Assembly (NCBI RefSeq): GCF_963931675.1
Contig: NZ_OZ007039.1
Coordinates: 1,771,806 to 1,835,805 of the forward strand
Length of the DNA: 64,000 nt
Direction of reading: 5' to 3'
DNA from: an uncultured Alistipes sp.
GTDB taxonomy: Bacteria > Bacteroidota > Bacteroidia > Bacteroidales > Rikenellaceae
Below the pieces are notes generated by a model. That model saw only the letters and a program-made list of their open reading frames with translations, searched no databases and was not told where the DNA came from. Position numbers and translations under genes: made by a program. Of the stretch, positions 18,640-45,932 are shown in pieces. How positions within the stretch are numbered: the stretch's first letter is position 1; every line of letters starts with the position of its first letter.

Positions 18640-18651
18640 ATAAGAGGCAAT

Positions 18652-22597: not shown

Positions 22598-22599
22598 AG

Positions 22600-23436: not shown

Positions 23437-23437
23437 T

Positions 23438-24277: not shown

Positions 24278-24281
24278 AATT

Positions 24282-27385: not shown

Positions 27386-27478
27386 AATAAAAAGATAACG
27401 TAGTACAAAAATATCTGCCATCAGAAATGGTGGCAGATATTATTTTAGCACAGTTGAGGATTTAGCACAATCTTAATT

Positions 27479-28765
27479 TTACTCTTGTTCTTCCAATGTC
27501 TCCAATTCTCGGGTAGCAAGCGTATCGAACTTAGCCATCTCCTTTGCTTTTGCCTCGTCTGTGATGCGGATGTAGGGTTTCATATCTTCGTATGAATCGT
27601 GCCCTGTCCATGCCATAACAGTTGTTGGTGGAATACCAATGGAAAGGGCAAGGCAGATAAATGTTTTGCGACCCGTATGGCTTGTGATGTATTCATATTT
27701 TGGCTTGGTCTCTTCCTTGCGTGATGCTCCTTCAAAGGAGATTTTGGTTACAGGAGTATCAATCTCACATAGCCTGCCTATTTCCTTCAAACATCTGTTC
27801 AGAACAGCATTGTGAACTCGTGGTAAGACAAACTCTTTGGCAAAAGGATTCTTCTTGTATTTCTTGATAATCTCTTTGCTGTATTTGTTGAGGTCGATTT
27901 TCACAGCATCGCTATCTTTCTGTGTGGTTATCTCAAGGTAGGTGTCGCGAACATCGACTTTCCTTAGTTTCATGACATCTGAGAATCTAAGAGATGTAAA
28001 TGCGGATAAGCAAAACCAGTCTCTATATAAATCAAGGTGTTTTAACTGTTTGGGAAACTTATAATTGTAAACCTTGAGCAACTCATCTCTTTCAAGGTAA
28101 ATGATGGTTCTTTTTGGTAACTTCAATTTTATTTTGAAGCCTGCGCAGTCTTGATGAATAGGGTAGTTGTTGTCTCTGCACCATTTGAAGAACGCTCCAA
28201 TATCCTGCCAACGTTTTGTGAATGTGGTGTTCTGTTTCCAATATTTCTGAAAGAACGCGACCATGGCAGTGAGTTTGGTGTTGGTTAGGTCTTCTATTTT
28301 CAGAGAAGAATCGAATGCTGTCAGTTTTGCCCGAATCGCATTATATTTCTTTTTAGTGTTGGCGCTCCATGTGTTAAGGGTTGCTCGATTTTTGGTAAAC
28401 TCATCAAAGTATGCCAATAGCGTTTTATCCTCATGCTTGACGGTGCCCAACGCTATCTTATATTCATTTTTGAGTTGTCCTTCAGAAGGATATTTGTTAT
28501 CCAAATCATACTTCCTGAATATGGCATTGACCGTGGAAATCTTATTTGCAATGCTGTCGTTTATTTCACGGAAGGTGTATCCTTGTCCGTTGACGGTGTT
28601 GCGCTTTGCTTCATATAGTTTGTCATCCCACTTTGATGCAGCTATGGTTAATCCCGTCTCAAGGTCAACCCTGCATTTGTTGAATGTAACGCGGATGATG
28701 ATGGACTGTTCTCCTGCCTTGTTGATACGGTGGTGCAACCGTGTTTTGATTCTGTAGGTTAGCAT
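27479..28765 (-). CDS. tyrosine site-specific integrase (CTnDOT-type, with N-terminal Arm DNA-binding domain)
   Basis: Arm block QSIIIRVTFNKCRVDLETGLTI. Catalytic blocks HTGRKTF and WTGHDSYEDMKPYIRI (the Tyr nucleophile). It is adjacent to the element's terminal repeat. Confidence 0.85.
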   Translation of the reverse strand: MLTYRIKTRLHHRINKAGEQSIIIRVTFNKCRVDLETGLTIAASKWDDKLYEAKRNTVNGQGYTFREINDSIANKISTVNAIFRKYDLDNKYPSEGQLKNEYKIALGTVKHEDKTLLAYFDEFTKNRATLNTWSANTKKKYNAIRAKLTAFDSSLKIEDLTNTKLTAMVAFFQKYWKQNTTFTKRWQDIGAFFKWCRDNNYPIHQDCAGFKIKLKLPKRTIIYLERDELLKVYNYKFPKQLKHLDLYRDWFCLSAFTSLRFSDVMKLRKVDVRDTYLEITTQKDSDAVKIDLNKYSKEIIKKYKKNPFAKEFVLPRVHNAVLNRCLKEIGRLCEIDTPVTKISFEGASRKEETKPKYEYITSHTGRKTFICLALSIGIPPTTVMAWTGHDSYEDMKPYIRITDEAKAKEMAKFDTLATRELETLEEQE

Positions 28766-28920
28766 GTGGATTACTCTTTGCCCCCAAATTTACCCCCATT
28801 TTTTGACAAATCAAAACAAACTACAAAAAACTATTAAGGATGGTCTTGTTTGTTAATTGTCTGTTAATCACAGTAATGCATGTATAAGAAAAACTAATAG
28901 AAATTAAAGAAAACTTCAAT

Positions 28921-28938
28921 CTGGAATCCCCTATCCAC
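28921..28938 (+). repeat. 18-bp duplicate of the tRNA-Glu 3' end (attR core of the integrative element)
   Basis: GAATCCCCTATCCACTAC is identical to 13019-13036. Confidence 0.65.
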
Positions 28939-29164
28939 TACAGGGAAACGATCGGTGACGGTCGTTTTTTTGTGAGCGATCGGAAACGGTCGCTTTTTTG
29001 GTGTGTACCTGTGCGAGACGGGGGTGTGGGGGCGTGTGAGGAGGGAGGGGCCGACAAGGACCCGGCTGGAAAATGCGGCGGCCGCCCTCGAAAAATGCGG
29101 CGGCCGCCTTTCCAAAGGCGGCCGTCGCGGCATTGGTTAGTTTAGGTTAAAGGTTGGTGGGGAT

Positions 29165-29461
29165 TTATTTCTCAAGTTTCGACTTGAACTTGTCGATTTG
29201 TCGTTTCAGGGCATCGATGGCCTCGTCGACGGACTCTTCGAATGCCTTCGACTGATGGCAGGCCACCAGGTCTTCGCCCGGCATGTGCAGCGTAATGGTT
29301 GCTATCTTATTTCCTTTTTCGTGGTCCTTATCGAGTTTGAGAATGACGTCGGCGCCTGTCGAGCGCTCCGCAAAGCGGTCCAACTTCGCCATTTTGGCAT
29401 TCACGAATTCGATCAGCCGTTTGTCGGCGTCGAATTTCACGGATTGAATCTGTACGTTCAT
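29165..29461 (-). CDS. hpf: ribosome hibernation promoting factor / RaiA family protein
   Basis: Short (98 aa) HPF-like sequence MNVQIQSVKFDADKRLIEFVNAKMAKLDRF...ITLHMPG. Confidence 0.75.
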   Translation of the reverse strand: MNVQIQSVKFDADKRLIEFVNAKMAKLDRFAERSTGADVILKLDKDHEKGNKIATITLHMPGEDLVACHQSKAFEESVDEAIDALKRQIDKFKSKLEK

Positions 29462-29483
29462 AGCCTTACAGTTTATAAAATGA

Positions 29484-30386
29484 TCATTTGCCTCCCTTTC
29501 CGCGGGGATGGGCCTTCGCGTAAGCCTCCCGGAGCCGAGCGATGCTGTTGTGGGTGTACACCTGCGTGGCCTGCAGCGATGCGTGTCCCAGGAGTTCCTG
29601 GATTTCGCGCATGTCGGCGCCTCCGTTCAACAGGTGTGTGGCAAACGTATGGCGAAGAACGTGGGGGCTTTTCTTGCCCTGTACGCCTCCGCGATCGAGT
29701 TCCTTCTTCACGATGCGGTACACGGTAGTCCGGGAAATGCGTTTTCCTTGGTGTGTTAAAAATAGCGCTTTTTCCCCGGATTTGCAAATATTTTGCCTTT
29801 CAATTGTCCCGAGGTAGGATAAAATTTTTTCCCGGATGAATTCCAGAACGGGCACCAGCCGCTCCTTGTCCCCCTTGCCGTGGACGCGCAGCGAGGTGTA
29901 GTTGTCGGAGAAGTCGCCGCGGTCGATCCCGACGAGTTCGGCCAGGCGCAGCCCGCAGCCATAGAAGAGCAGGATGATGAGCGAATCCCGCTCCTGCCCG
30001 AAGTCGTCGCTTTCGACCTCGCAGTCGCGGACGATCCCGCTCATGCGGTTTTCGGAAATGAAGGCCGGCAGGCGCCGCGAGGTGCGGAGTGAGGCGACGG
30101 ACTGCACGACATTGCGTTCGACGACGCCCCGGCTGAGGAGCCAGCGGAAGAAGGAGCGCAGCGACGAAATCTCGCGGTTCATCGATGCGGCGCCGATACG
30201 GTCCTTCTCCGTGCGGTGGAGGATCCACTCGCGGATATCTTCGGTGGCGACCCGGCGGAGTCCTTCGGGGGAGTCGTCGACTCTGAGCCATGCCAGGAAC
30301 TGCGCCACGTCGTGACGGTAGTTGCGGAGCGTGAGCGGCGAGTAGCGGCGTTCGGCTTCGAGGTATCGGATGAATTCGTCCAGCAT
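29484..30386 (-). CDS. tyrosine recombinase XerC/XerD family
   Basis: N-terminal core-binding block LDEFIRYLEAERRYSPLTLRNYRHDV. Catalytic RHTFATHLL...GHASLQATQVYTH with the Tyr nucleophile. Confidence 0.75.
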   Translation of the reverse strand: MLDEFIRYLEAERRYSPLTLRNYRHDVAQFLAWLRVDDSPEGLRRVATEDIREWILHRTEKDRIGAASMNREISSLRSFFRWLLSRGVVERNVVQSVASLRTSRRLPAFISENRMSGIVRDCEVESDDFGQERDSLIILLFYGCGLRLAELVGIDRGDFSDNYTSLRVHGKGDKERLVPVLEFIREKILSYLGTIERQNICKSGEKALFLTHQGKRISRTTVYRIVKKELDRGGVQGKKSPHVLRHTFATHLLNGGADMREIQELLGHASLQATQVYTHNSIARLREAYAKAHPRGKGGK

Positions 30387-30522
30387 GTAGGCAAGTATAT
30401 AAAAAGGTGAGCGCAACGGCAGACGAAAACCGGGTTTTCAGGTTCGGCCATGCCGGGCTGCAGCCTGTATGCTGTAAAGATAGCGAAAAACTCCTATCTT
30501 TGTATGCAAAGAAGCCGAAGTT

Positions 30523-31107
30523 ATGAAACAGCGATGGAAACCCGGCACGGTGCTTTACCCGTTGCCGGCGGTATTGGTGAGTTGCGGGGCGACGCCCGAG
30601 GAGTACAACCTGCTGACCGTGGCGTGGACTGGGACGGTCTGCACGAACCCTCCGATGTGCTCGATCTCGGTGCGGCCCGAACGCCACTCCTACGGGATCA
30701 TCCGCCGCACGGGAGAGTTCGTGATCAACCTGACGACGCGGCGGCTGGCCCGGGCGACGGACTGGTGCGGGGTGCGTTCGGGACGCGACTGGGACAAGTT
30801 CCGCGAAATGGGCCTGACGCCCGTGGCCTCGGAGGCGGTTGCGGCGCCGCTCCTTGCCGAGTCGCCCGTGAATATCGAGTGCCGGGTCCGCCAGGTGGTG
30901 CCGCTCGGGAGCCACGATCTCTTCATCGCCGAGGTGGTCGGGGTGCAGGTCGACGAGGCGCTGATCGATCCGGCAACGGGCCGTTTCTGCCTGGAGCGGG
31001 CCGATCCGATCGTCTACTCCCACGGGGAGTATTTCGTCCTGGGCGAAGCGCTGGGGCACTTCGGCTGGTCGGTGCGGAAGCGGAAGAAGGGGGCGAAGCA
31101 TCGCTGA
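30523..31107 (+). CDS. flavin reductase-like (FMN-binding) family protein
   Basis: LYPLPAVLVSCG...NLLTVAWTG is typical of the flavin reductase-like domain. A paralogue sits at 54745-55302. Confidence 0.65.
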   Translation: MKQRWKPGTVLYPLPAVLVSCGATPEEYNLLTVAWTGTVCTNPPMCSISVRPERHSYGIIRRTGEFVINLTTRRLARATDWCGVRSGRDWDKFREMGLTPVASEAVAAPLLAESPVNIECRVRQVVPLGSHDLFIAEVVGVQVDEALIDPATGRFCLERADPIVYSHGEYFVLGEALGHFGWSVRKRKKGAKHR

Positions 31108-31349
31108 TCCGTGCTGAATCCGCCCTGTTTCGCCGCAATCCGAGGGGTGCTGCCGGAAGTTTTGGCGGGGCGCCGTTCGAGGGAACGGCACCCCGTTCTT
31201 TTTTGGCCGGAGGGGATTCGGACAGGGGCAGGACGGGAACAGGACGCATAAAATCACGAATAGGCGTAAATATTTGCCTTTCAGGTTTGTTAATCCGTGA
31301 ATTTTTGCTATATTTGACCAATTGTGAACCTTAACTCATCTCTCCGCAT

Positions 31350-32651
31350 ATGGCAATCATTGATCTTGTACGATGGGCGCCTCAGGACGGCGAAACGATT
31401 TTCGCCTGGCGTTTCCCGCATACGAATCTGAGTACCTACACGCAGTTGATCGTCCAGGAGTCTCAGGAGGCGGTCCTCTTCTCCAAGGGGCAGATCATGG
31501 GTAAGTTCGGGCCCGGAAAGCACACGCTCAACACGGAAAACCTGCCCGTTCTGCGTTCGCTGTTCGGCATCCCGTTCGGCGGTCGGAATCCGTTTACGGC
31601 CGAAGTGTGGTTCGTCAACCGGATCCAGACCTTCAGCATCGACTGGTCCATCGACCGGATGACGATCCACGACGCGGACTATAACACGCAGCTGCCGCTG
31701 ACGGCCTCCGGACAGTACGGCCTGGTGGTCTCCGATGCCGAGAAGTTCCTCGTGAAGATCGTCGGCACCCGGAGCGAATTCACGCAGGACGACCTCACGG
31801 AGCAGTTTACGGGCGAATTCTCGACCAAAACCAAGTCGACCATCCTGCAGTACATGCTGAAACACCGGGTGGGATTCAAGCAGATCTCGGCCTACCTGGA
31901 CATGATCTCCGAGTACCTGAAGAGTGCCATGAACCCCTTCTGGGAGGATCTGGGGCTACAGCTGACGAAGTTCTACGTGAGCACGATCGAGATCGACGAC
32001 TCCACGCCCGACGGACGGCGCGTGAAGGAGGCGATTGCGCAGCAGGCGGCCATGTCCATTACGGGCCACACCTGGCAGCAGGAGCAGATGTTCGATACGG
32101 CGAAGTCGGCGATCGGCGGCCTGGGCGACAATTCGGGCGGACTGCTGGGCGGGCTGCTGGCCGTGAACATGATGGGCGGCCTGGGCGGCGGGAATGCCGC
32201 CGGGGTGATGCAGCCGCAATACAACCAGCCGACCTTCGGAGGTCCGGTCGCTGCGGCTCCGGGCCCCGGCGCTTCGGGAGGCACGGGCGCCCCGACGGGC
32301 GGTGCGGCGCCGGGCGGTGAACAGCAGGTGAAGATGGTCTACTGCTCGAACTGCGCGAAGAAATTCCCGAGCAACATGCGCTTCTGCCCCCATTGCGGCG
32401 ATCCCTACAATCCCTGCCCGCACTGCGGGACGGATAACGACCAGAACGCCAAACGGTGCGTAAGCTGCGGCGCCTACCTGCAGACCGGGGCGGGCGTCTG
32501 CCCGAACTGCAACGCGCCGCTTGCTCCCGGCAGCTCCTTCTGCGGGCACTGCGGCTATCAGGTTGTCACCTCGGGGGATGTCTGCAGCCGCTGCGGGGCT
32601 CCGCTTCCGCCTTCGGTGAAGTTCTGCCCCCGCTGCGGGAACAAACGTTGA
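31350..32651 (+). CDS. SPFH/band-7-like domain protein with a Gly-rich linker and five C-terminal CxxC...CxxC zinc-ribbon repeats
   Basis: The N-terminal ~250 aa resemble SPFH-domain proteins of the 'virion core protein-like' type. The C-terminus has five repeats of CxxCG(x)nCPxCG (CSNCAK...CPHCG, CPHCG...CVSCG, CPNCN...CGHCG, CSRCG...CPRCG). Confidence 0.55.
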   Translation: MAIIDLVRWAPQDGETIFAWRFPHTNLSTYTQLIVQESQEAVLFSKGQIMGKFGPGKHTLNTENLPVLRSLFGIPFGGRNPFTAEVWFVNRIQTFSIDWSIDRMTIHDADYNTQLPLTASGQYGLVVSDAEKFLVKIVGTRSEFTQDDLTEQFTGEFSTKTKSTILQYMLKHRVGFKQISAYLDMISEYLKSAMNPFWEDLGLQLTKFYVSTIEIDDSTPDGRRVKEAIAQQAAMSITGHTWQQEQMFDTAKSAIGGLGDNSGGLLGGLLAVNMMGGLGGGNAAGVMQPQYNQPTFGGPVAAAPGPGASGGTGAPTGGAAPGGEQQVKMVYCSNCAKKFPSNMRFCPHCGDPYNPCPHCGTDNDQNAKRCVSCGAYLQTGAGVCPNCNAPLAPGSSFCGHCGYQVVTSGDVCSRCGAPLPPSVKFCPRCGNKR

Positions 32652-32671
32652 ACCTCAGAAAATCCCGAACC

Positions 32672-33376
32672 ATGCAAAAAACACTCTCCTGGATCGCCCT
32701 GGTGGGCGGTGAAATCGTCATTTTCGTCGCATTCCGCCTGTGGGGCGGGGGGCTCCTGCCCGAAATCCGCACCTTGAACACAGCCGTCTCGATGATCGTG
32801 CTGGCGCTGTTTTTCGTCGACATCCTGATCCCGTGGGTCGACTGGAACGGCCGCAGCGGGAAACGCCTCGGAGCACTCGGCCTGCGGTGGGTCGCTACGG
32901 GCCTTTACGCCGTGGCGGCCGTCGCCGTCATGCTGCTGTGCAATGTGGCTTTCCAGACACTTTTCTCGACGCAACTGCTGATCCACTGCATCCTGCTGCT
33001 GGGGCTGGTGCTCGGCTTCTCGGCGGTCGTCGGGGCTTCGGCCAAGGTGGGGGCGGTCCATGCCCGGGAAGAGCAGCTGCGCTCCGGGCTCGACGACCTG
33101 AAACAGCGCGTCCGGCAGTTGCAGCGTGTCGCCGCAGGTATTCCCGATCTCCCGGCTGCCGATCGGAGCCGGATCGACGCTCTGGCGGGTGAGCTTCGTT
33201 TCGTGGCGCCCTGCCGCACGGCGGAGGCCGCAGCACTCGAGAAGGAGTTCGGCGAAGCGCTCCAAACCCTCGAATTCGCACTCCCGGCCCACGCCATGAA
33301 CCGCGGGGCGGTCGAATCGGCGCTGGCCCGGGCTGAACGCCTCTGCGCGGAACGAAAAACGCTCTACACCAACTAA
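32672..33376 (+). CDS. integral membrane protein (4 predicted TM helices) with a C-terminal coiled-coil-like tail
   Basis: Hydrophobic segments WIALVGGEIVIFVAF, MIVLALFFVDILIPW, YAVAAVAVMLLC and LIHCILLLGLVLGFSAVVG. The start is chosen at MQKTLSW. Confidence 0.5.
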   Translation: MQKTLSWIALVGGEIVIFVAFRLWGGGLLPEIRTLNTAVSMIVLALFFVDILIPWVDWNGRSGKRLGALGLRWVATGLYAVAAVAVMLLCNVAFQTLFSTQLLIHCILLLGLVLGFSAVVGASAKVGAVHAREEQLRSGLDDLKQRVRQLQRVAAGIPDLPAADRSRIDALAGELRFVAPCRTAEAAALEKEFGEALQTLEFALPAHAMNRGAVESALARAERLCAERKTLYTN

Positions 33377-33391
33377 CCCAACCTAATAACC

Positions 33392-35689
33392 ATGAAAGGA
33401 AAAATTTTCCCTGAATCTACGAATAGTTATCAGGATCAGGCCAAGATCCTGTTCAACTATTATCAGCAGGCTGCTGAAAAGATTGTCGCGGAGGAGGAGC
33501 GCATCGAGAAGGAGATTGCGGTCCTGGAGGAGGAGAAGGTCCAGCTCGGAAAGGAGATCGGCGGACTGTGGTGGTGGTTTTTGACGATCATTTTGTTCTT
33601 TGTCTATTTCATCAAGAAGAACGGTCTGCAGAAGCGGATTACGGAGATCGATAGCCGGATCGCCGGGTTCCGGCGGCAGCACGCCGAAATCTTCCGGGAT
33701 TACAAGGTGACCAAACTCGGCGTGGTCTACGTTCCGGTTGCGGACCAGATCAAGTACGAGGACCGGAGTTTCATCGTCGACTATACGGGCAAGGTCCCCG
33801 AATCGGAGGTTACGCTGCAGCTGTCGCGCCGGAACGACCTGCTGATCGAGACCATCGGGCGTCTCGAAAAGCTTTCGGACGAGGCGCCGATCGTCGAGGG
33901 TTCGCAGGAGATCGAGACCGTCGGGACGGAGGACTATTCGACCTCGATCCAGCAGATCAACCAGCACGACTACCTGGGGAACCTGGAGCGTTCGCTGCGG
34001 ACGATCTCCTACTGCATGGACGACCTCGACACGACGTCGGTGTCGCTGCCGCTGGTTGCCGACCAGAGCGACTACCTGCAGTTCCTCAATGAATATGCCA
34101 CGCGGGAGTTGCCCGAACGTGCGGCCGTGATCCCGGTCTTCGACAAGGCACGCTACACCGAGAGCATCGAGAAGTTCCAGGAACTGAACCGCCTCAAGGA
34201 TTCGCTGTCGACCAAGACCCAGCAGTTCGAGGATGTGCTCAAGTCGCTCATGTCCACGATCGCCAACTCGGTGCAGGCGATTTCGGCCCTGAAGGTGGCC
34301 TCGGTGGACAAGGTGGTCCTGGAGTCGAACAAGATCCTCTATCAGATCCTGAAGGCGCCTTACAACCACTACTCGCCGATGCTGGAGTTCGAGGAGATCG
34401 AGCGCATCCGCAACGAGCAGTTCGATTACAGCGAGGATGTGCAGAGCTACGTACCGTTCAAGTTGCGGCAGAGCTCGCGGGTGCGTTTCAACCTGGTGAC
34501 GGGGCTCTGGACATCGGAGGACGGAAATACGACCAACATGCCTTTCGGCGTGCACCAGCTCTATGAGGAGATCGTGGCGCCGGTGGTCCAGAACCTGATG
34601 ACGGAGAACCGGATCGAGCGCCTGAAGATCTACAACCACATCAAGGACCAGAAGATCGACTACCTGAACAAGTGGCATCAGGATACCGACGCCTTCTACC
34701 GGGCCAACCGGGCCGAGAGTGCCGACATCATCAACCTGATGCAGGAGAGCCTTCGCGAGTACGTGGCGGCCTACAATACGCTGATCTCCCTGCAGCGGAC
34801 CGAGGACAGCATGGTGCAGTCGAACGGCGAGCTGGATTCCACGGTGGTGGATGTGGTCGACAATACGGCAGAGACCCTCGCGGCCTTCGAGCTGCAGTCG
34901 CAGGAGTTCCAGAAGACGCAGGCCAACTTCGAGGAGTACATGGAGCGCCTGAAGGAGGACATCGATCTGAAAGCCGAGAAGTTCGGCTATATCGAGTATT
35001 ACGATGCGAAACTGCGCGACGGTTATTCGCACGAGGCGGCCGTTGCGTCGAACGAAATCCATGCCCTGGACGAGCGGCGCAAGTCGCTGGCTACGGTGAA
35101 CCCGCTCTTCGCCAAGACCACGGAACTGCCTCCCCAGCCCAATGTCGAGGCCATCACGTTCGAACACATCTCGCTGAACCTGCCGGTGATCGCCAAGGCG
35201 GCGCTGGAGGATCTCGGTGCCGGGCCGGAGGAGTCTGAAGATCCGGACGACGGGGCAACTCCGGGGGATCCGGACGCAGCCGCGCTTTCGGAATCGGGTC
35301 CCGCCGGAGCGGATGAAGAGGCTGATGAGGAGGTGGAGATTGACGGTGACGACGAGGAGGATGACGACGAGGGGGATGACGGCGAAGGAGACGAGGAGGA
35401 CGAAGGAAACGAGGAGGATGAGGACGAAGATGACGAGGAGGATGAGGACGAAGACGATGAGGAAGATGAGGAAGATGAGGAGGATGAGGAGGATGAGGAG
35501 GATGACGAGGATGACGAGGATGACGAGGATGAGGATCCGTTGACACGTGAGGATTTGGAGGCGATGAGCGATGAAGAACTGATGGAAATTCTGGATTATC
35601 TCGAACTGGAGTATGCGGCGGAGCCTTTCGATCGTGAGGAGGCTATCGCGACGATCCTGGAGGTGCAGAACGAATCCGATAACGAATAA
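33392..35689 (+). CDS. large hypothetical protein (765 aa) with one N-terminal TM segment and a ~110-aa poly-acidic (D/E) C-terminal tail
   Basis: TM segment LWWWFLTIILFFVYFI. The tail is encoded by GAG/GAT/GAC repeats at about 35215-35545. Confidence 0.55.
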   Translation: MKGKIFPESTNSYQDQAKILFNYYQQAAEKIVAEEERIEKEIAVLEEEKVQLGKEIGGLWWWFLTIILFFVYFIKKNGLQKRITEIDSRIAGFRRQHAEIFRDYKVTKLGVVYVPVADQIKYEDRSFIVDYTGKVPESEVTLQLSRRNDLLIETIGRLEKLSDEAPIVEGSQEIETVGTEDYSTSIQQINQHDYLGNLERSLRTISYCMDDLDTTSVSLPLVADQSDYLQFLNEYATRELPERAAVIPVFDKARYTESIEKFQELNRLKDSLSTKTQQFEDVLKSLMSTIANSVQAISALKVASVDKVVLESNKILYQILKAPYNHYSPMLEFEEIERIRNEQFDYSEDVQSYVPFKLRQSSRVRFNLVTGLWTSEDGNTTNMPFGVHQLYEEIVAPVVQNLMTENRIERLKIYNHIKDQKIDYLNKWHQDTDAFYRANRAESADIINLMQESLREYVAAYNTLISLQRTEDSMVQSNGELDSTVVDVVDNTAETLAAFELQSQEFQKTQANFEEYMERLKEDIDLKAEKFGYIEYYDAKLRDGYSHEAAVASNEIHALDERRKSLATVNPLFAKTTELPPQPNVEAITFEHISLNLPVIAKAALEDLGAGPEESEDPDDGATPGDPDAAALSESGPAGADEEADEEVEIDGDDEEDDDEGDDGEGDEEDEGNEEDEDEDDEEDEDEDDEEDEEDEEDEEDEEDDEDDEDDEDEDPLTREDLEAMSDEELMEILDYLELEYAAEPFDREEAIATILEVQNESDNE

Positions 35690-35701
35690 AAACGACTTCC
35701 T

Positions 35702-36625
35702 ATGGCTTATATTGATTGTGTAGTAGATACTCAGCCGATGGCTCGGGAGATCGATTCCGTCTCCAACCATATCAAAGGCACCACGGCGGCGGTCGTGGGA
35801 ATGCAGGCTGCCGTCATCAAAGCGGAGGAAGAGGCTTCGAACCATGTTTGCGAGAATGTCAACCGGGGATTCTATACGCTGATCCACTCGCAGATCTCGC
35901 AGAAAATCGCCAAACTCAAGAGTGAGGTCGATTCCCACCTGATGCAGCTGAACCAGCAGCGCAAGCAGCTGCTGGCGATCAAGAGCCGCATGGAACGGGA
36001 TTACAACATGATTTCGGCACGCTACCTGAAACTCTTCAACGGCCTGAACCAGAACCTCCGGCAGCGCGTTTTCGAACTGGACAAACCGACGATTGAATTT
36101 GCGGTGAAGGATGTGGACAAGATCACGAACCGCACGAGACTTCTGCCGGGTGCGGTTCCGGTCGTGCAACTCGAATCGCTGGAGATGAGCCAGCGGATCC
36201 TGGCTTCGAACATCAAGTACCGGGGATTGTCGGTCATCAACTCGATGAAACGCTTCCTGCAGGACATGTACGCGCAGAAACGCCTTACGGATCGGATCCT
36301 CCTGCCGGAGCAGACCTCCGTGGAGCACGCTGCGCTGGCGGTTCCGGTGATCATCTGCGAATCGAACTATGACAAGCACGACAATCGCCGTCTGGACATC
36401 GTGGTGGCGCAGACGGGCCTTTCGAACGAAGCCCGGGTGCGGATCCAGAGCACGATCGGCGAGATGGCCGGATCCCTGCCGTGGAGTGCGGACGAGGCTC
36501 CGGGTGCGGAGATCTGCAGTGAGTTCAACCGCTGTCTGGCGGCTTCCGAGGCTTCGCAGCGCGTGAAGGAGATGGCGACGCGGCTGTTCATGACCCACGG
36601 TTATCAAACCGTTAAAACGCGCTGA
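35702..36625 (+). CDS. hypothetical protein, paralogue of the next gene
   Basis: Shares the block MERDYNMISARYLKLFNGLNQNLRQRVFELDKP with the MEVDYNRISTRYLKIFDELNSELKNRIFELDRP block of the downstream gene. Confidence 0.5.
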   Translation: MAYIDCVVDTQPMAREIDSVSNHIKGTTAAVVGMQAAVIKAEEEASNHVCENVNRGFYTLIHSQISQKIAKLKSEVDSHLMQLNQQRKQLLAIKSRMERDYNMISARYLKLFNGLNQNLRQRVFELDKPTIEFAVKDVDKITNRTRLLPGAVPVVQLESLEMSQRILASNIKYRGLSVINSMKRFLQDMYAQKRLTDRILLPEQTSVEHAALAVPVIICESNYDKHDNRRLDIVVAQTGLSNEARVRIQSTIGEMAGSLPWSADEAPGAEICSEFNRCLAASEASQRVKEMATRLFMTHGYQTVKTR

Positions 36626-36627
36626 TT

Positions 36628-37650
36628 ATGGGCTACAGACGAAGTTTTACGAAACGAATTGCCGTCCACTACTCCGGGAGCGTCTCCTATCCGGCGTCGC
36701 AGAACGGAGGCAGTGTCTCCTACAGCGGTACGGCGTATGAGGATGTGACGGTGAACATCGATGTGGCTACGGAGCCCTTTGAGCATAGCGTCGCGCGGTG
36801 CAACAACCATGTGGGGACGCTGACCGGGGCTGTCGTGGCGACGGAGGCCGCGCAGATCGCCTCGATCCGTGAGAATGCGCGGAAGGTGGGGCAGACGATC
36901 ATCGACGGCTTCTTCAAGACGGTGCGTTCCGAAATCAGCCAGCAGATCTCCGAGTTGTCGAGCCGGATCAATGCCACGCTGGTGCACCTGCAGGAACTGG
37001 CCAAACGGTGTGTGGACAAGCAGCGGCAGATGGAGGTCGACTACAACCGGATTTCGACGCGTTACCTGAAGATCTTCGACGAACTGAACAGCGAACTGAA
37101 GAACCGGATCTTCGAGCTGGACCGTCCGGCCTTCGTCTTCAAGGCGGACAGCGACGAGAGCGCCGCCCGTTTCGTCGAGGGGCCGCTGGTCGGCACGGCA
37201 ATCGTGTCGGGCAGCGAGGAGAGTTCGCTGCAGGCGCTGATCTCGGCGTCGCGGAGCAAGAAGCAGGCGCAGGATACGATCCATGAGATCGACCGTTTTC
37301 TGACCAAACAGAAACGCCTGGATCAGTTGCTGCACCGCTGCATCCTGCCCGAGAACCGGGAATCCGCGGTTTATATTCCGATCTGCTATTTGGAGACTTC
37401 CGGAGAGAAGGGGGTAATCGACCGCCATCTTTACCAGGCGGAGTATCTTCCGACGGTTCCGTTGGCGCGGCTGGAGAATTCGTTGTCCGCGGCGTCGTGG
37501 TCGGAGGTTCCGCAGTCGCGTGCCGAAAGCATCCGGAATTACTTCAACCGGGAGGTTTCCGGGCACTATGCCTCGACGAATCCGCACGAGACCCGGGTCA
37601 GGGAGTGCATTACCCGCCTGTTTAATATCGCAACCATAAAAAGCCTATAA
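36628..37650 (+). CDS. hypothetical protein, paralogue of the previous gene
   Basis: See the previous entry. There is a 2-nt intergenic gap. Confidence 0.5.
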   Translation: MGYRRSFTKRIAVHYSGSVSYPASQNGGSVSYSGTAYEDVTVNIDVATEPFEHSVARCNNHVGTLTGAVVATEAAQIASIRENARKVGQTIIDGFFKTVRSEISQQISELSSRINATLVHLQELAKRCVDKQRQMEVDYNRISTRYLKIFDELNSELKNRIFELDRPAFVFKADSDESAARFVEGPLVGTAIVSGSEESSLQALISASRSKKQAQDTIHEIDRFLTKQKRLDQLLHRCILPENRESAVYIPICYLETSGEKGVIDRHLYQAEYLPTVPLARLENSLSAASWSEVPQSRAESIRNYFNREVSGHYASTNPHETRVRECITRLFNIATIKSL

Positions 37651-37652
37651 TC

Positions 37653-38624
37653 ATGAAGGAACTGAAAGAGATACGTTTTAATGAAACGGACATTCTGTTG
37701 CAGGACAACCTTGTCCGGGGCTCGATCCTGCCGGAAACGGTAGCCGAACTGAACCGGAATATCATCTTCAAGGGGGATACGGTGGTCGAAGGCCCCGTCT
37801 ACGGGCATCGCCTTGAGATTCAGCAGGGAAGCCTGGAGATTCAGGGTGCGGTGTTCGCGCAGTTCGAGTTGTATGTCAATTCGGAGGCCGGTGGGAACAT
37901 CACGTTCAAAAAATCTGTGGGGTCGGCCAATACGATTGTTTCGCGGGCTTCCAACTGCCGGTTGGTTTTCCATTCGGACATCAATGCCAAATCGGTATCG
38001 TTGTGCAACGCCTTTGTGGCGGGCAGTGTGTATGCTGACGAGGTGGAGTTGGTGAACTGTGTGGTGATCGGAGGTGTTTTCGCCACGCAGTCGGTTGATC
38101 TCACCAACTCGATCGTGGGGACGTTCAACACGCCGTCGATCAAGGTCTCGGGCATCGTTCATCTGCTGCTGCCGAGTGCCTTCTCGGTGGAGAAGATGGT
38201 TGCGGCGGCGGGGACCCGCCTTTACAACCTGTGTCTGGCGGATCTGGGCGCTTTGTACAAGGGTTTTCCGGAGTCTGCGAATTCGGGCAAGATCGCCATC
38301 GATGTGGATGCCGACGAGGTGACGACGAAACTCTCCGACGATCAGGTCCAGAAGACGCTGCGGAGCTATACGGTGATCGGGAAGGTGCTGGCGGCGGATC
38401 TGCTGGATACGGACAAGTTCCAGAATCATTTTCTGCTGACGGCGGCGAGCCTGGGCCCGCAGTTGCTGAAGAGCTACGATCTGGGAGTCGACAAGGCGGG
38501 GAATCCGGCGACGCTTACCGTGGACCGGATCCGGGATTTCTTCTTCGACATTCTGAGCGGGAAGATTGCGATTCAGGACATGGACGGCAAGTTCAATATC
38601 TCGCAGATTGCCGGACGGGGTTGA
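37653..38624 (+). CDS. bactofilin-like beta-helix domain protein
   Basis: N-terminal repetitive hydrophobic-Gly pattern (IFKGDTVVEGPVYGHRLEI..GSLEIQGAVFA...NCVVIGGVFATQSVDLTNSIVG) characteristic of bactofilin/DUF583. Confidence 0.45.
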   Translation: MKELKEIRFNETDILLQDNLVRGSILPETVAELNRNIIFKGDTVVEGPVYGHRLEIQQGSLEIQGAVFAQFELYVNSEAGGNITFKKSVGSANTIVSRASNCRLVFHSDINAKSVSLCNAFVAGSVYADEVELVNCVVIGGVFATQSVDLTNSIVGTFNTPSIKVSGIVHLLLPSAFSVEKMVAAAGTRLYNLCLADLGALYKGFPESANSGKIAIDVDADEVTTKLSDDQVQKTLRSYTVIGKVLAADLLDTDKFQNHFLLTAASLGPQLLKSYDLGVDKAGNPATLTVDRIRDFFFDILSGKIAIQDMDGKFNISQIAGRG

Positions 38625-38684
38625 TTCCCTGCGGATGTTTCCGCCCCCCCCTCTTTCGGGTGAAGCCCTTGAAAAATGGTTGAA

Positions 38685-38724
38685 GAGAGGCCGGCCTTTA
38701 CGAAGGCCGGCCTCTCTTTTTCGG
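38685..38724. terminator. bidirectional hairpin terminator (agagaggccggcc...ggccggcctctcttttt)
   Basis: Perfect 13-bp stem with a T-run, between convergent genes. Confidence 0.55.
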
Positions 38725-38740
38725 ACGGGGTAGGGAGAAA

Positions 38741-39160
38741 TTACGATCCGGATTTTTCCGGATGCCCTTCGGTGAGCCGGTCGAGAATCTTCTGCGCCAC
38801 GATGCGCTGCCCGTCGGCCGTCATGTGCACGCCGTCGGGCGCATACTCCTTGAAAAAGGGCTGAAACGGATGGTAGATGTCGATGACCTCCCATCCGTAT
38901 CGGCGGGCAATGGCGGTCAGTTCGGGAATCAGCCGTCCGAGGCGTTCGTTGCCTCCGGTATATTTTGGCCCGGCCTGGGCATCGTTCATGGGCGGCGGCG
39001 TGACGAAGATACAGCGGGGGCTGGTGCGGCGCACCCATCCCGAGCGGGAGATGGTTTCGAGCAGGCGCGTGAAGTTGTCCGTAACTTCGTGCTGCCGATC
39101 GGCGAAGACGACTTTCGTATCGTTCGTGCCCAGGCATACGACGATCGCATCGCATCGCAT
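38741..39160 (-). pseudogene. SGNH/GDSL hydrolase lacking the N-terminal block I (truncated)
   Basis: Starts at MRCDAIVVCLGTNDT (block II GxND). Carries the DGVHMT block (DxxH) but no upstream GDS block. The repeat element at 39190 abuts the truncated start. Confidence 0.45.
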
Positions 39161-39189
39161 CCTTTTTTGACGCACTATTATGTTTATAT

Positions 39190-39614
39190 TGATTATCAAT
39201 ATTTACGGCTTAAAAGATGGGGATTTTAAAAATTTACTTGTTTTTTCACAAAAAATCGAAGATTTAACGATTTTTTCATCGTCTCCCTCCGCACAGAGGG
39301 GAAATAGGCAAAAACAGCCTTTAGGGGCCCCGACCGATCTCGTTTACAAGATAAGGCATGGCGGTGTTTATTTCGCCAAAATGGGCTGTAAAATCGAGGA
39401 TGGATTCACGGATAGTTTCGGGGTTGTCGTCCGTCATCTTGGGTGAGCTGATGGGGTGTTTTGCTTAGCCTTTGCCCCTGAGCTCTTAAAAGTTTTGCAG
39501 CCAAAAGAAAAAATGGCGGTAGCCATTTTCCATGGCGCAGCCATCTCTTTTCTTCCCTTATTTTGACTTTACTTTAATGAACGTATATATGAATACGGGG
39601 GATAAAGTAAAGTT
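39190..39614 (+). repeat. structured repeat element, copy 1 (~425 bp; a second copy lies at 55516-56075)
   Basis: The two copies share about 150 bp at the 5' end (gattatcaat...aaatttacttgtttttt.acaaaaaatcgaagatttaacg.ttttttcatcg.ctccctccg.acagagggg) and about 75 bp at the 3' end, ending in the hairpin gactttactttaatgaacgtatat.t.a.tacgggg.ataaagtaaagtt. Neither copy has a conserved ORF. Confidence 0.6.
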
Positions 39615-39717
39615 TCTTTTCTTTTGGCTGTAAATTATTTAGTGAATCCTTTGGCTGTTTTATATTTAATCGCGATATTTGCGTTACGATGATTATGTAA
39701 TGATTGGATGGAATAAA

Positions 39718-40842
39718 ATGAAACCGAACAATCCTTTCTTGATAACGGGCTACCACAGCCCTGAATTTTTTTGCGACCGTGAGACGGAAACATCTACGAT
39801 TCTTGATGCGCTCCACAATGGGCGTAATGTAACGCTGATTGCTCCCCGTCGTATGGGCAAGACCGGTCTGATCCGTCATGCCTTTTATCGTCTGAAAGAG
39901 CAGGAACCCGATATTGTCACGCTCTATATGGATATCTACTCTACGCAGTCAATGGGTGATTTCGTGCGGTTGTTTGCCAATACGGTGTTGGGGAAACTGG
40001 ATACTGCACCCCAGAAAGCATTAAGCCGCATTGGACAGTTTATTCGCAGTTGTCGTCCGGTATTCACCATTGACGAACTGACCGGAGTCCCCAAAGTGAC
40101 GATTGACGTGGCACCCCAAGAGGAGGAGCGTACACTGAAAGAGATATTCGATTATCTGGGATCCTCGGAGAAACGGTGTTATATTGCCATCGACGAGTTT
40201 CAGCAGATTGCCGAATACCCGGAGAAAGGGATAGAAGCTCTGTTGCGCTCCTATATCCAGTTCCTGCCTAATGTAAACTTTATCTTTGCGGGCAGCAAGC
40301 AACATTTGATGCAGGAGATGTTTACGTCGTCGAAAAGACCGTTCTATCAGAGTACGCAACTGCTGACCATCGGCCCCATTGATCGTGAGTCGTATGCCTG
40401 TTTCGCTGCTGTGCACTTTGCTGAACATGGCGTGCAGCTTCCCCATGAGGTTTTCGATGCAATTTACGATAAATTTGATGGACATACCTGGTATATCCAG
40501 TGCCTTCTCAATCGCTTGTACGGCTATAATCGGAATGTGGATACGAGGTTGGTGGCGTATGCTACGGAACAGATCGTTTCCGAACAGAGCTATTCGTATG
40601 CGGATTTGCTGAAGGCCTATTCGGCCGGTCATGTGCGCCTGTTGAAAGCTATCGCCCGCGAAGGGTGCGTCAAGGAGGTGTTGGCGGGAGATTTTATCAG
40701 CCGACATCGGCTTCGTGCGGCGAGCAGCGTAAGTGCTTCATTGAAGAAGCTGCTCGATCATGAACTGGTTTATCAGACACCTTGCGGGTATATTATTTAC
40801 GACCGCTTTATGAGCGAGTGGTTGCGGCAGCAGCCGTTCTAA
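39718..40842 (+). CDS. AAA+ ATPase (archaeal-ATPase/DUF234-type ATP-binding protein)
   Basis: Walker A block LIAPRRMGKTGL and Walker B IAIDEFQ. The architecture is typical of Bacteroides 'ATP-binding protein' genes. Confidence 0.6.
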   Translation: MKPNNPFLITGYHSPEFFCDRETETSTILDALHNGRNVTLIAPRRMGKTGLIRHAFYRLKEQEPDIVTLYMDIYSTQSMGDFVRLFANTVLGKLDTAPQKALSRIGQFIRSCRPVFTIDELTGVPKVTIDVAPQEEERTLKEIFDYLGSSEKRCYIAIDEFQQIAEYPEKGIEALLRSYIQFLPNVNFIFAGSKQHLMQEMFTSSKRPFYQSTQLLTIGPIDRESYACFAAVHFAEHGVQLPHEVFDAIYDKFDGHTWYIQCLLNRLYGYNRNVDTRLVAYATEQIVSEQSYSYADLLKAYSAGHVRLLKAIAREGCVKEVLAGDFISRHRLRAASSVSASLKKLLDHELVYQTPCGYIIYDRFMSEWLRQQPF

Positions 40843-40854
40843 TGACGAGATATT

Positions 40855-41463
40855 ATGAAAGACGAAATAATCCGATTTTTAGCGCAGAACATCGTCGGCA
40901 GAATCTTATTCACCGACGATGTGGTATATAAACTTGAGAAGGGACACATGGAAGGTGTGTATAACGATAAAATGATCTTCTCCGATCTGGTGCAGACCGA
41001 AGGAGGTTTTAAGTTCAACATGACTTCCGTTACTCATGAGTTGGTATACCATCTGGATGAGAAAGGGGAAAGAACCACCATTGCCAAAGATTATACAGGA
41101 ACGAGTGTGTTTTGCTATGAACTGGCCTTGAGGAAAAGTACCGGACGACTGACCGGTTACATGCACTGCATTTCAACAACGGTTCAGCATCAGACCATGG
41201 AAGCTGTTGTTTGCGGGCTATTTGATGTCTCCTTTGATGAAAAGGGGTTGAAATGGCAGGAAAATCAGTTGTTGTATAGAGATAACCCTACAAGTGCGGA
41301 TAAATACAAGCCTGTTGCATTTGATGCCAAGGTCCGAATTTATCTTGACAATGGCAAGGCCGTATTCGAATACCTGCCGACGCATTGGGATGTGGATCCA
41401 GATACCTTGGAAAAAAGATTATCCAAGGACAATTATCCAGCTTATATATCAAAGGAGAGGTGA
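40855..41463 (+). CDS. hypothetical protein
   Basis: ORF only; 12 nt downstream of the ATPase gene. Confidence 0.45.
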   Translation: MKDEIIRFLAQNIVGRILFTDDVVYKLEKGHMEGVYNDKMIFSDLVQTEGGFKFNMTSVTHELVYHLDEKGERTTIAKDYTGTSVFCYELALRKSTGRLTGYMHCISTTVQHQTMEAVVCGLFDVSFDEKGLKWQENQLLYRDNPTSADKYKPVAFDAKVRIYLDNGKAVFEYLPTHWDVDPDTLEKRLSKDNYPAYISKER

Positions 41464-41744
41464 GAGGTAAGTTGATTTGTTAAACCATGTTTGAGAACGC
41501 TCTATTTTTTACGCAATAGTTCAATTTTGATTCGTTGGAATATAGTATAGCGGTTAAAGGTTCATATATGATATATTGTTTGGAATTTTATAATCAGAGT
41601 AAAAAGTCTGTTTGGAGAGAATTCTCGATAAGAATGAAGGTGCTGCTTCGTCTCAAGAAATTTGTTGGTTCTCAATAAAATCCGTAATTTCGTTCCGTCA
41701 ATAGAATAAAAACAAAGCATAAAGTTTACAATGCTGCAAAGAAG

Positions 41745-41940
41745 AATGAACAACTGGAACACCATATCGGACCGAGGCATAAAATGTCTTGAGGTGTTAC
41801 CGTATGCCCATACTTCGGGCATTGGAGCATTCTATACTTTTGGAGACATTTTCCGACGAACGTCTGATAGACCATCGGGGGTACGATGATGCTGGTATCC
41901 CGCTGAAACGATAAATGAAAACCGTCGGAGAGTCCGACGC
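41745..41940 (+). repeat. ~190-bp repeat, copy A (second copy at 59932-60125); may encode a 36-46-aa peptide or a small RNA
   Basis: About 75-80% identity between copies, including atg.ccatacttcgggcattg.agcattctat...tacgatgatgc.ggtatcccgctgaa..gataaatgaaaaccgtcggagagtcc. Confidence 0.5.
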
Positions 41941-42157
41941 AGAAAAGCGTTGTAACTCGTTAATTTTCTGTTTGTTACGACGTTGACCGATGCCGCAAAA
42001 AGACACACTGTAAAGAGGCGGCAAAACCTTGTTTGACGCTTCATTTCAGGTGTCCGATATTCTCGGAAAAATGTAAAACTCGGGTTCGGAGTCCGAATTT
42101 TGGAGGTTCATTTCCCGCTCCGAACCGGGGATTCATCCGGGAAGAACAAGATCTTTT

Positions 42158-42613
42158 TTAAGCCTTGTTTTGGTGCTTTTTCAGAACCTCCTCTCTGGAT
42201 TCAAAGTGCTGTTTGCCCGACAAGGCTCGCTCCTCGGCTTTGCGCTGTCGGATGCGTCCGACCCAATCCGGTGCAATTTCAATCGAGACAATCCACACAA
42301 CCTGCATGGAGCAGTACAGCAGAATTTGCATGGGAAACGAAAACTGCGTTTCGGCAGGAAACAGCCAGTTGTACGTTGCCAAAGGGACGAATGCATTGAC
42401 GATTAACATCAAGGCTTCTGTTTCTCGTTGCCGGCGTGTATATCCGAGGTGTTTCCAGGCGATCAGAATGAGAAGTACGTTGACCCCGAGCAATGTCCAA
42501 ACGATTGGCCACGGTTTGATAACCGCTGTTTCCGGGTGCGAGTTCATGATGAACCAAGCCGGAATAACAGGGACTAGTCCGTTTATCAGCAGCGTGAAAA
42601 CCTTGAAAGCCAT
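42158..42613 (-). CDS. small integral membrane protein (4 TM)
   Basis: Hydrophobic segments and a basic C-terminus. Confidence 0.45.
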   Translation of the reverse strand: MAFKVFTLLINGLVPVIPAWFIMNSHPETAVIKPWPIVWTLLGVNVLLILIAWKHLGYTRRQRETEALMLIVNAFVPLATYNWLFPAETQFSFPMQILLYCSMQVVWIVSIEIAPDWVGRIRQRKAEERALSGKQHFESREEVLKKHQNKA

Positions 42614-42781
42614 CGTGAAGCCTATTTGCTCTTGAATCCAAAGTTAGGAAAATATTTCGAATTCTCGCTTTGTTTATGAAAATTGATGCCAATTTTTCTG
42701 ATTGGCAAATTGTTTGTCGTTTACCTATCAACCCGACGGAGGCGATCGGGAAAGTACAGGTACAGGTAACACTGAAAAAGA

Positions 42782-43378: not shown

Positions 43379-43394
43379 CCGTCACACTCTGTGG

Positions 43395-43436
43395 ATAGGG
43401 TAGTCGGGTTCCGATTTTTCGGGGCCCGACTTTTTT
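43395..43436 (+). terminator. Rho-independent terminator (gtcgggttccgatttttcggggcccgac + T-run)
   Basis: Inverted repeat plus ttttttatt directly after the stop codon. Confidence 0.55.
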
Positions 43437-43578
43437 ATTCTGTTGAGAACTTCCGACCGGATGCAAGGAAATCTCTCTTTGTAGTCTGTGTTTCATGGTG
43501 AATGTTGCTTAAATGGAAGATATTCTTTATATTTGTAAGGAATACTATTTTATTTGTTTTGTGGTATAAATAGCATTT

Positions 43579-44974: not shown

Positions 44975-45065
44975 TAAGAATTTAAACTGTGTTAGTGAGT
45001 CGAAAGAAACTCAAGATTGTTAGATTTTTAAGATATGTGCGATTCTTATTTCATTTTTATACACA

Positions 45066-45845: not shown

Positions 45846-45932
45846 TGTGGTGGACAATTAATGGTCTTTTCCTCCAAAATAGTTTAGATTTTATTGGGCT
45901 AAATGAAATTTATTGGTTTTGAAAGTCTTATT

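Follow-up and report, generated by a model that had tools for sequence, protein, structure and literature searches.

A six-gene operon conserved across Bacteroidota encodes a predicted YdjI-type SPFH protein and a bactofilin-like protein and may form a submembrane scaffold

Organization of the Operon and Its Transcription Signals

We analyzed a stretch of 64,000 nucleotides (nt) from an uncultured Alistipes species, in the following called the window, and focused on an operon of six genes at positions 31350–38624, here named g1 to g6. All six genes are located on the plus strand: g1 at 31350–32651 (433 amino acids, aa), g2 at 32672–33376 (234 aa), g3 at 33392–35689 (765 aa), g4 at 35702–36625 (307 aa), g5 at 36628–37650 (340 aa), starting 2 nt past the g4 stop codon, and g6 at 37653–38624 (323 aa). 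The intergenic gaps in the list of open reading frames (ORFs) of the window are 20, 15, 12, 2, and 2 nt from g1 to g6. This agrees exactly with an earlier reading of the locus, the sequence-only reading, which had claimed six co-directional genes with these gaps. The 20-nt gap between g1 and g2 depends on the ATG at 32672, which was taken as the g2 start inside a longer GTG-initiated ORF. The same six genes were obtained by independent gene calling on metagenome contigs, mostly with this g2 start.

A promoter motif of the Bacteroidetes type, TTTG-N19-TATATTTG (-33/-7), is present on the plus strand at 31286–31316, 34 nt upstream of the g1 ATG. The pattern TTTG N17-23 TAnnTTTG matched nine times in the window, with 1.5 matches expected. 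The match in front of g1 was the only one within 28.8–55.8 kb, and there was none inside the operon. A GC-rich 17-bp hairpin followed by a T-run lies at 38682–38722 (not assigned to a strand), between g6 and the convergent remnant of a GDSL lipase gene. The RNA fold of this hairpin had an energy of -33.8 kcal/mol and a z-score of -6.5, and 0 of 200 shuffled sequences were equally stable. It is probably a bidirectional terminator; the scan for consensus terminators did not list it, probably due to its short T-run. Because of the gaps of 2–20 nt, the single promoter motif, and the single terminal hairpin, the six genes look like one transcription unit. Rfam gave no match in the operon region or in one related locus with the cassette structure described below.

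Conservation and Transfer of the Operon in Bacteroidota

Related loci were collected by a pattern-based genome scan of limited sensitivity that covered one genome per species and yielded 164 relatives of g4; 80 loci were retrieved and are referred to by L numbers. All six ORFs were complete and in the same order in 61 of 79 loci, with median gaps of 5–22 nt. When the six window proteins were compared by tblastn, the order and strand of g1 to g6 were kept wherever the flanking sequence was sufficient. The sequence-only reading had named missing synteny in other genomes as a reason to abandon it; the order is kept across the Bacteroidota. The carriers belong to the Bacteroidales, Flavobacteriales (Capnocytophaga, Lutibacter), Chitinophagales, Sphingobacteriales, Cytophagaceae, and Marinilabiliales (Labilibaculum).

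Amino acid identity to the window proteins was highest for the core of g3 (63%–88%) and for g6 (61%–87%), followed by g1 (55%–82%), g4 (51%–78%), g5 (40%–75%), and g2 (24%–59%). The near-identical Alistipes loci L007 and L008 are excluded from these values. Two metagenome-assembled genomes (MAGs) of Alistipes are 96%–97% identical to the window over g4.

Clustering of the flanking ORFs revealed no seventh conserved gene, and the flanks differ between loci. In comparison to the congeneric Candidatus Alistipes faecavium, nucleotide homology spans only positions 31333–38618 of the window. Since the six genes are complete and in order in most loci, no other neighbor is conserved, and the congeneric homology stops at these limits, the operon appears to be one functional unit. 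The six genes are passed on and transferred together as one unit, and this module is accessory, patchy in its distribution, and moves horizontally within Bacteroidota.

Some loci showed a different composition. A Muribaculaceae MAG (L071, 5699–10933) harbors only g3 to g6, preceded by unrelated genes (Mfd and a small minus-strand ORF, L,D-transpeptidase-like as judged by eye). In a Prevotellaceae MAG (L042, 2439–10939), g1 is replaced by a DNA methyltransferase-like gene, again judged by eye, together with two unidentified companion ORFs. The genes g3 to g6 may represent a minimal core. In the Bacteroidota MAG JAKPTX01, two diverged operon copies lie on separate contigs (L017 and L026), due to duplication or acquisition or to a binning artefact.

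The SPFH Protein g1

The g1 protein matched the Pfam family Band_7_1 (PF13421) with 130.2 bits (cut-off 24) and an E-value of 1.1e-37. The match comprises aa 20–235 of the protein and positions 2–209 of the 211 positions of the profile, and the precomputed Pfam matches of g1 orthologues agree with it. The original assignment of g1 to the SPFH proteins, therefore, passes the Pfam cut-off. Several zinc-ribbon families of Pfam (DZR/Zn_ribbon) match aa 329–432, and zinc-ribbon proteins were also the only matches when g1 was compared by sequence to the PDB. Five zinc ribbons had been claimed for g1. The protein has eight CxxC motifs with a spacing of 14 residues, which corresponds to four CxxC...CxxC ribbons, and exactly eight CxxC motifs were present in 68 of 68 orthologues examined; the number of ribbons is thus four.

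A hydropathy scan revealed no hydrophobic segment in g1. The glycine-rich linker that had been noticed in front of the ribbons is present at aa ~255–325 and is conserved across the phylum. With this linker, the eight CxxC motifs, and no hydrophobic segment, g1 has the features of the YdjI/SamI type and is, as far as the sequence tells, a soluble SPFH protein of this type. The linker holds a glycine-zipper-like hydrophobic stretch that is conserved phylum-wide, GGLLGGLxAxNMMGGxGG, followed by a conserved MQPQYNQP (window positions 32100–32330). Given these motifs, the linker appears to be more than a low-complexity region. The glycine-zipper-like part may act as a membrane-insertion or partner-binding element.

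The Membrane Proteins g2 and g3

The hydropathy scan predicted four transmembrane (TM) segments in g2 at aa 5–23, 38–56, 74–92, and 102–120, in line with the initial description of g2 as a membrane protein; they are followed by a helical C-terminal part of ~110 aa. g2 is the least conserved member of the operon, with 24%–43% identity outside the genus. For the 765-aa protein g3, the same scan found a single hydrophobic segment at aa 56–74, preceded by an N-terminal coiled segment, so that the single TM helix proposed for g3 is retained. Based on these predicted TM segments, g2 and g3 are considered integral membrane proteins. Basic residues are clustered C-terminally of the TM segment of g3, and by the positive-inside rule the large domain of g3 is placed in the cytoplasm.

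The core of g3 comprises ~530 aa, is very conserved across the phylum (63%–88% identity, as given above), and has no known fold. It is followed by an acidic, low-complexity tail at aa ~606–717, with 78 Asp or Glu residues in positions 601–720 and 51 of 60 in positions 661–720. The tail had been described as ~110 aa of only Asp and Glu; its length and acidic character hold, while the composition is dominated by these two residues and not exclusive, and another motif follows. The g3 orthologues comprise 620–785 aa and differ in length only in this acidic tail. Since many of them, with 620–650 aa, do not have it, the tail appears to be dispensable.

The motif behind the tail is a helical stretch of ~45 aa at the C-terminus, aa 718–765 (window positions 35543–35686), with the consensus ...EEL..M.D.EL.EIL..L.IEYD..FDRE.AI..IL. 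Some orthologues have one or two copies of it and others have none; P0259, P0261, and P0281 were among the orthologues compared. When isolated, this motif gave only sub-threshold matches to SAP/LEM/HeH-like domains, and this identity was rejected. A "TerB-C domain", the UniRef name of one g3 orthologue, was not reproduced by Pfam, neither with that protein nor with the isolated tail. A relation of g3 to g4 and g5 was likewise discarded (0.1% by hhalign).

The Paralogous Proteins g4 and g5

The proteins g4 and g5 share 31% identity over 308 columns (BLASTP, E-value 8e-35), as expected from the tandem duplication that had been proposed for them; g5 has an N-terminal extension of ~35 aa relative to g4. 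Both genes were found in every locus, and we concluded that the duplication predates the spread of the module. The AlphaFold model of the coiled-coil protein g4 shows a helix of ~117 residues (aa 11–127), taken as the basic element of both paralogues, a second helix (aa 156–200), and a small alpha/beta domain at the C-terminus. The segment between the helices, aa 131–156, is conserved and unfolded in the isolated model.

A search of 1.84 billion representative proteins with the combined g4 and g5 profile recovered 624 clusters. Proteins of the best 150 of these 624 clusters had at most 365 aa and no fusion to a known domain. By these searches, g4 and g5 constitute a compact, new family. Comparison by hhalign revealed no relation of g4/g5 to PspA. 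The Bacterial Death-like domain 2 was considered for the g4 C-terminus: 6 of 33 members matched, with a best E-value of 9e-4, and in one member inspected the score was 14.9 bits versus a cut-off of 25, with two strands and three helices in the model at this position. These matches were treated as noise.

The Bactofilin-Like Protein g6

AlphaFold predicted a beta-helix with confidence for aa 13–194 of g6. This solenoid of ~180 residues, about twice the size of the canonical bactofilin domain, is followed by a near-invariant C-terminal region of ~130 aa that is unfolded in isolation, with low confidence at aa 212–271. The beta-helix superposes on the bactofilin of Thermus. The bactofilin family of Pfam (PF04519) gave no match to the window protein at E <= 1. 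It matched 20 of 30 g6 orthologues below the threshold, with a best E-value of 2.6e-4, and none of them reached the gathering score. A profile of the g6 family did not find bactofilins in the PDB by sequence, and Foldseek hits of g6 against the PDB were not significant. Two g6 orthologues are named "CcmA (bactofilin family)" by JGI. Thus, the designation of g6 as bactofilin-like stands at the level of the fold, while at the level of sequence the orthologues stay below the threshold and the window protein has no match.

In comparison to the known bactofilins (PF04519; Thermus TtBac 6RIA, Caulobacter BacA 2N3D, Helicobacter CcmA), g6 shares the weak profile matches of its orthologues. It differs by the length of the solenoid and by the near-invariant C-terminal region, in the place of which bactofilins have a short disordered tail. 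A g5–g6 fusion in locus L051 was rejected, since an in-frame stop codon is present.

Searches for Known Families and Systems

We compared all six proteins to Pfam, NCBIfam, PADLOC, and PHROGs, and only the SPFH domain and the zinc ribbons of g1 were found; g2, g3, g4, and g5 did not match any family of these collections. Scanning the g3 and g4/g5 alignments with Pfam one member at a time gave no significant match. Sequence searches of the PDB, run with single sequences and also with g3, g4, and g6 profiles, revealed no relatives beyond the zinc-ribbon matches of g1. With Pfam and NCBIfam, the six proteins showed neither a nuclease, NADase, protease, or NTPase domain nor any other domain typical of effectors or sensors. 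No significant match was obtained with PADLOC-DB 2.0 for any of the six: g1, g2, and g6 had no match at all, and the best E-values, 0.001–0.1, were due to coiled-coil regions of ZorA, ZorG, and PDC-S06.

The source annotations of the members read "hypothetical", apart from the two JGI entries "CcmA" for g6 and the one "TerB-C" for g3 that was not reproduced. Our literature search found no paper that describes the operon or links SPFH proteins with bactofilins. The statement that the operon is not a described system is consistent with all of this. Compared to known systems, the operon is probably of the SPFH-scaffold kind, with most of its parts from new protein families.

The Cassette Frame of Related Loci

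In some lineages the operon is bracketed by conserved non-coding elements: element B of ~290 nt on the 5' side, which ends at the g1 ATG, and element A on the 3' side, which starts at the g6 stop codon and consists of ~230 nt with an imperfect palindrome of ~127–130 nt as its 3' end. Both elements enclose the operon in at least 18 loci. With nhmmer profiles, the B and A ends were located in L011, L016, L017, L035, L037, L039, L040, L047, and L052 and in ~14 metagenome contigs; the same profiles gave no match in the window or in the Alistipes loci. Among the carriers of the bracketed operon are Bacteroidales bacterium CF, with a complete genome, and Labilibaculum filiforme, an isolate. The elements are located at 3431–3718 and 10945–11320 in L016, at 3468–3776 and 10972–11333 in L047, at 3344–3875 and 10970–11335 in L035, and at 3506–3814 and 10974–11561 in L039.

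Between the CF strain and Labilibaculum, the genes have 53%–68% nucleotide identity, with saturated four-fold degenerate sites (0.21–0.43), and the identity is 89% for B and 82% for A. Homology between genomes ends sharply at the limits of a unit of ~7.85 kb. L035, from a Chitinophagales MAG, and L047, from Labilibaculum, have 87% nucleotide identity over exactly this 7.85-kb unit, which argues for a recent transfer between classes.

The palindrome of A is flanked by GTAAC...GTT, and its outer stem of 12 bp, one bulged base, and 6 bp is preserved in four versions that differ in the sequence of the arms. The palindromes were folded one sequence at a time; RNAalifold recovered only the invariant first hairpin of element A, as the variable palindrome was misaligned by MAFFT. 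A possible small ORF of ~33 aa (MxEIVDKQKGxSLDKKEGQLVT...) was noticed within element A at ~11080–11180 of L016 and at equivalent positions of other loci; it runs into the palindrome.

A scan of metagenomes with 19 nt of A yielded at least 120 contigs; among the matches listed, ~97 carry A and ~14 carry the operon. The metagenome loci have the numbers L087–L206 (examples with cassettes are L141, L100, L125, L137, L182, L111, L110, and L181). At junctions with unrelated genes, A and B adjoin each other. In 34 cases among the matches listed, B and A enclose a co-directional payload of 3–12 kb, and ORFs on the cassette strand cover 78%–100% of it (at least 93% in all but one). Profile tests identified a Type IIG restriction-modification (R-M) enzyme (E-value 1.6e-291), a candidate for a McrB-like PDC-M26A protein, a ZorB-like MotB protein together with a ZorA-like partner, a kinase-AAA+ protein (mad6/IetA/PD-T4-6) with HSP70, and an IetA-like AAA+ protein among the payloads. 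Czc-type metal efflux genes and radical-SAM clusters, judged by eye only, were also present. The cassette in L181 (2858–6379, minus strand) encodes another Band_7_1 SPFH protein, which is fused to GYF_2 and 31% identical to g1, in company with a small membrane protein and a zinc-ribbon-containing protein (CxxC motifs seen by eye). By this example, the cargo of the cassettes repeatedly includes SPFH proteins of the YdjI type, and their partners vary.

The frame formed by B and A looks like an integron-like cassette family, and our literature search found no description of such cassettes in Bacteroidota. Like integron gene cassettes, it has an imperfect palindrome at the 3' end, GTAAC...GTT boundaries, a head-to-tail arrangement, and frequent defence cargo. 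A tyrosine recombinase of the Xer/IntI clade is located directly upstream in two contigs (L047 and L111). Unlike integron cassettes, the frame encloses multi-gene operons of 4–12 kb, adds conserved sequences of ~290 nt at the 5' side and ~230 nt at the 3' side, and has core motifs that do not fit GTTRRRY. The window copy does not have any feature of the frame.

Possible Function of the Six Proteins

We tentatively favor the view that the operon encodes a submembrane scaffold that works like PspA–SamGHI (YdjGHI) of Bacillus subtilis, with non-homologous partners, and place its probability somewhat short of even. A "membrane-associated scaffold or cytoskeletal assembly" had already been suggested by the sequence-only reading, which is reasonable. 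YdjI of B. subtilis is a soluble protein that is recruited by two operon-encoded membrane proteins, tethers the polymer-forming coiled-coil protein PspA, and stabilizes PspA foci at the membrane (PMC8581546; bioRxiv 10.64898/2026.02.06.704340). g1 shares the layout published for YdjI, in which a Band_7_1-type SPFH domain that lacks a membrane anchor is followed by a low-complexity linker and by zinc ribbons at the C-terminus (PMC8581546). Band-7/zinc-ribbon proteins have been linked to PspA in the comparative literature. By analogy to YdjI/SamI, g1 is the only lead with an experimental anchor. The operon also resembles that of B. subtilis in encoding two membrane proteins (g2 with four and g3 with one predicted TM segment) and one or more polymer-prone coiled-coil proteins.

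According to this model, the six proteins would build one multi-protein assembly without a recognizable enzyme at the cytoplasmic face of the inner membrane. g2 and g3 would anchor the complex and recruit g1, which would oligomerize as SPFH proteins do and thereby delimit a patch of the membrane. g4 and g5 would pair to a long heterodimeric coiled-coil rod, and g6 would polymerize through its solenoid to filaments. The interfaces between the subunits would be formed by the invariant segments that AlphaFold leaves unfolded in the single proteins (g4 aa 131–156 and g6 aa 212–271). The resulting submembrane lattice would stabilize or protect, shape, or monitor the membrane under envelope stress.

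Location in the cytoplasm is suggested by the hydropathy scan, which showed no N-terminal hydrophobic segment in g1, g4, g5, and g6, and by the basic cluster that follows the TM segment of g3. Strong purifying selection, with identities across classes of 63%–88% for the g3 core and 61%–89% for g6, fixed lengths, and no enzymatic domain agree with structural proteins that make many contacts with each other. The 2-nt gaps between g4, g5, and g6, the retention of both paralogues, and the invariant unfolded segments, again together with no enzyme, fit an obligate structural complex.

The known systems differ from the operon in several respects. No PspA/IM30 protein (ESCRT-III superfamily) is encoded together with g1, and, since no Pfam family matched g2 and g3, these do not carry the Zn-ribbon, NTF2-like, and TPM domains described for YdjG and YdjH. 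g1 has four ribbons instead of one, a bactofilin-like protein is added, and the organisms belong to the Bacteroidota and not to the Firmicutes. The SPFH/NfeD and HflK/C cages (E. coli QmcA–YbbJ, HflK/C–FtsH) also combine an SPFH protein with a dedicated membrane partner in an operon, and membrane oligomerization is expected of such SPFH proteins. However, g1 lacks their N-terminal TM or hairpin anchor and belongs to the distinct Band_7_1 family, and no NfeD or protease partner was found here with Pfam.

Other considerations weigh against the scaffold. Every functional step is by analogy, and, as g2 and g3 match no known family, it is g1 that carries the parallel to PspA–SamGHI. The g4 model is a single extended helix (pTM 0.27) and does not give a quaternary arrangement. 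Because relatives were present in only 164 species-level genomes of a scan with limited sensitivity, a general housekeeping role is disfavored. The patchiness, the horizontal transfer, and the cassette ends shared with defence systems fit immunity at least as naturally.

Such an anti-phage or conflict system would act by abortive infection: the zinc ribbons, the SPFH domain, and the coiled-coil parts would sense infection or a perturbation of the envelope, and g2/g3 or the polymerizing g4, g5, and g6 would disrupt the function of the membrane or block the invader. We regard this as doubtful, with a substantial chance of being correct. It fits that the module is self-contained and patchy with unrelated flanks, that the 7.85-kb unit with 87% identity in L035 and L047 was recently transferred between classes, and that the frame seen in at least 18 loci also carries R-M, McrB-like, ZorAB-like, and kinase-AAA+/HSP70 cargoes, but part of the cassette cargo, as judged by eye, is unrelated to defence (Czc-type metal efflux, radical-SAM), and the cassette ends are missing from the window copy. 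The window block lies between strain-variable low-GC islands with an integrase, T5orf172, a DEAD/ResIII helicase, an AAA ATPase, and HipA, whereas in other taxa the Pfam-annotated neighborhoods differ from each other and consist of metabolic or housekeeping genes (glp genes, PGK, RNase HII). Relatives of the operon were absent from IMG/VR viral contigs, GenBank phages, and PLSDB plasmids, a result that counts for the scaffold and against an immune system. None of the six proteins matches PADLOC or has a usual effector or sensor domain, and, for an immune system, their sequences and architecture vary unusually little. Like Zorya and other membrane-anchored anti-phage systems, the operon comprises several genes, is membrane-anchored, rich in coiled coils, accessory, and horizontally mobile, and in some lineages it occupies the same frame as ZorAB-like cargo. 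Its PADLOC matches to ZorA tails are due to coiled coils only and non-significant (E 0.003–0.1), and a MotAB-type stator and a nuclease or helicase effector are not encoded.

Canonical bactofilins localize cell-wall or division enzymes in Caulobacter, Helicobacter, and Hyphomonas. A morphogenetic or division cytoskeleton, in which the g6 filament is placed by the membrane proteins and coiled-coil adaptors and localizes wall or division enzymes encoded elsewhere, would explain the superposition of g6 on Thermus bactofilin, the JGI names CcmA/bactofilin of some orthologues, and a conservation as high as is typical of cytoskeletal proteins. Loss of YdjG/YdjH in B. subtilis leads to shape defects under stress (PMC8581546). 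We consider such a cytoskeleton improbable: no peptidoglycan enzyme or division gene is linked to the operon in any locus, the module is patchy and was transferred between classes while shape systems are usually lineage-wide and vertically inherited, and g6 stays below the Pfam bactofilin threshold with an atypical architecture.

An intracellular or membrane-derived structure (vesicles, a microdomain, or a compartment, or storage of cations or polyamines on the acidic g3 tail) would agree with the extremely acidic tail, the enzyme-free, purely structural gene set, and the closed cages that SPFH proteins form on membranes according to structural work cited in a passage of PMC10936438, but is very unlikely, as the tail is missing from many orthologues of 620–650 aa, the unit contains no shell, lipid-synthesis, or transport gene, and the support comes from composition.

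In the scaffold that we favor, as well as in a defence system, the operon might be pictured as a new enzyme-free membrane machine for envelope integrity or anti-phage immunity, made of a YdjI-type SPFH protein, a bactofilin-like filament of double length, and four families without known relatives, and spread as cargo of undescribed integron-like cassettes that also carry classical defence systems; taken as a whole, this picture is speculative and, with all its parts, rather unlikely to hold. Four of the six proteins (g2, g3, and g4/g5) have no relatives of known function and are nevertheless conserved phylum-wide like core structural proteins, and knowledge of their function would bring annotation to several dark families at once. 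Here a YdjI-type SPFH protein is newly linked to a bactofilin-like polymer, which would provide a second independent case for soluble SPFH proteins that tether polymers to membranes, a question so far based on PspA–SamGHI of B. subtilis alone. If the defence reading were true, the operon would represent an immune system without a recognizable enzymatic effector. The cassette frame may serve the defence and resistance operons of environmental Bacteroidota as a general vehicle and would then be a tool to find more of them.

Genomic Surroundings of the Window Copy

The window has a mosaic composition, with the operon block (29052–39156) at ~58%–65% GC amid flanks of at most 45% GC (13000–29000 and 39200–51900). 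The operon had been placed in "core-GC DNA", which is correct for the base composition of the block; its patchy occurrence, varied contexts, and horizontal transfer argue against a core gene set. In another strain of the window species, homology extends from the start of its contig (window position 29052) to 39156 and is followed by divergence. The downstream gene for a SASA/peptidase S9/GDSL lipase encodes 995 aa in this other strain, and a remnant of 139–152 aa is left in the window (38741–39199).

The upstream low-GC island (~25700–28765) encodes a DEAD/ResIII helicase, a T5orf172/MUG113 protein, and an Arm-DNA-binding integrase. The downstream island (39679–46000) encodes an ATPase_2/AAA_16 protein, HipA with its coupling domain, and another helicase; both islands were annotated through L001. 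Their content beside the operon block looks defence-island-like or toxin-antitoxin-like.

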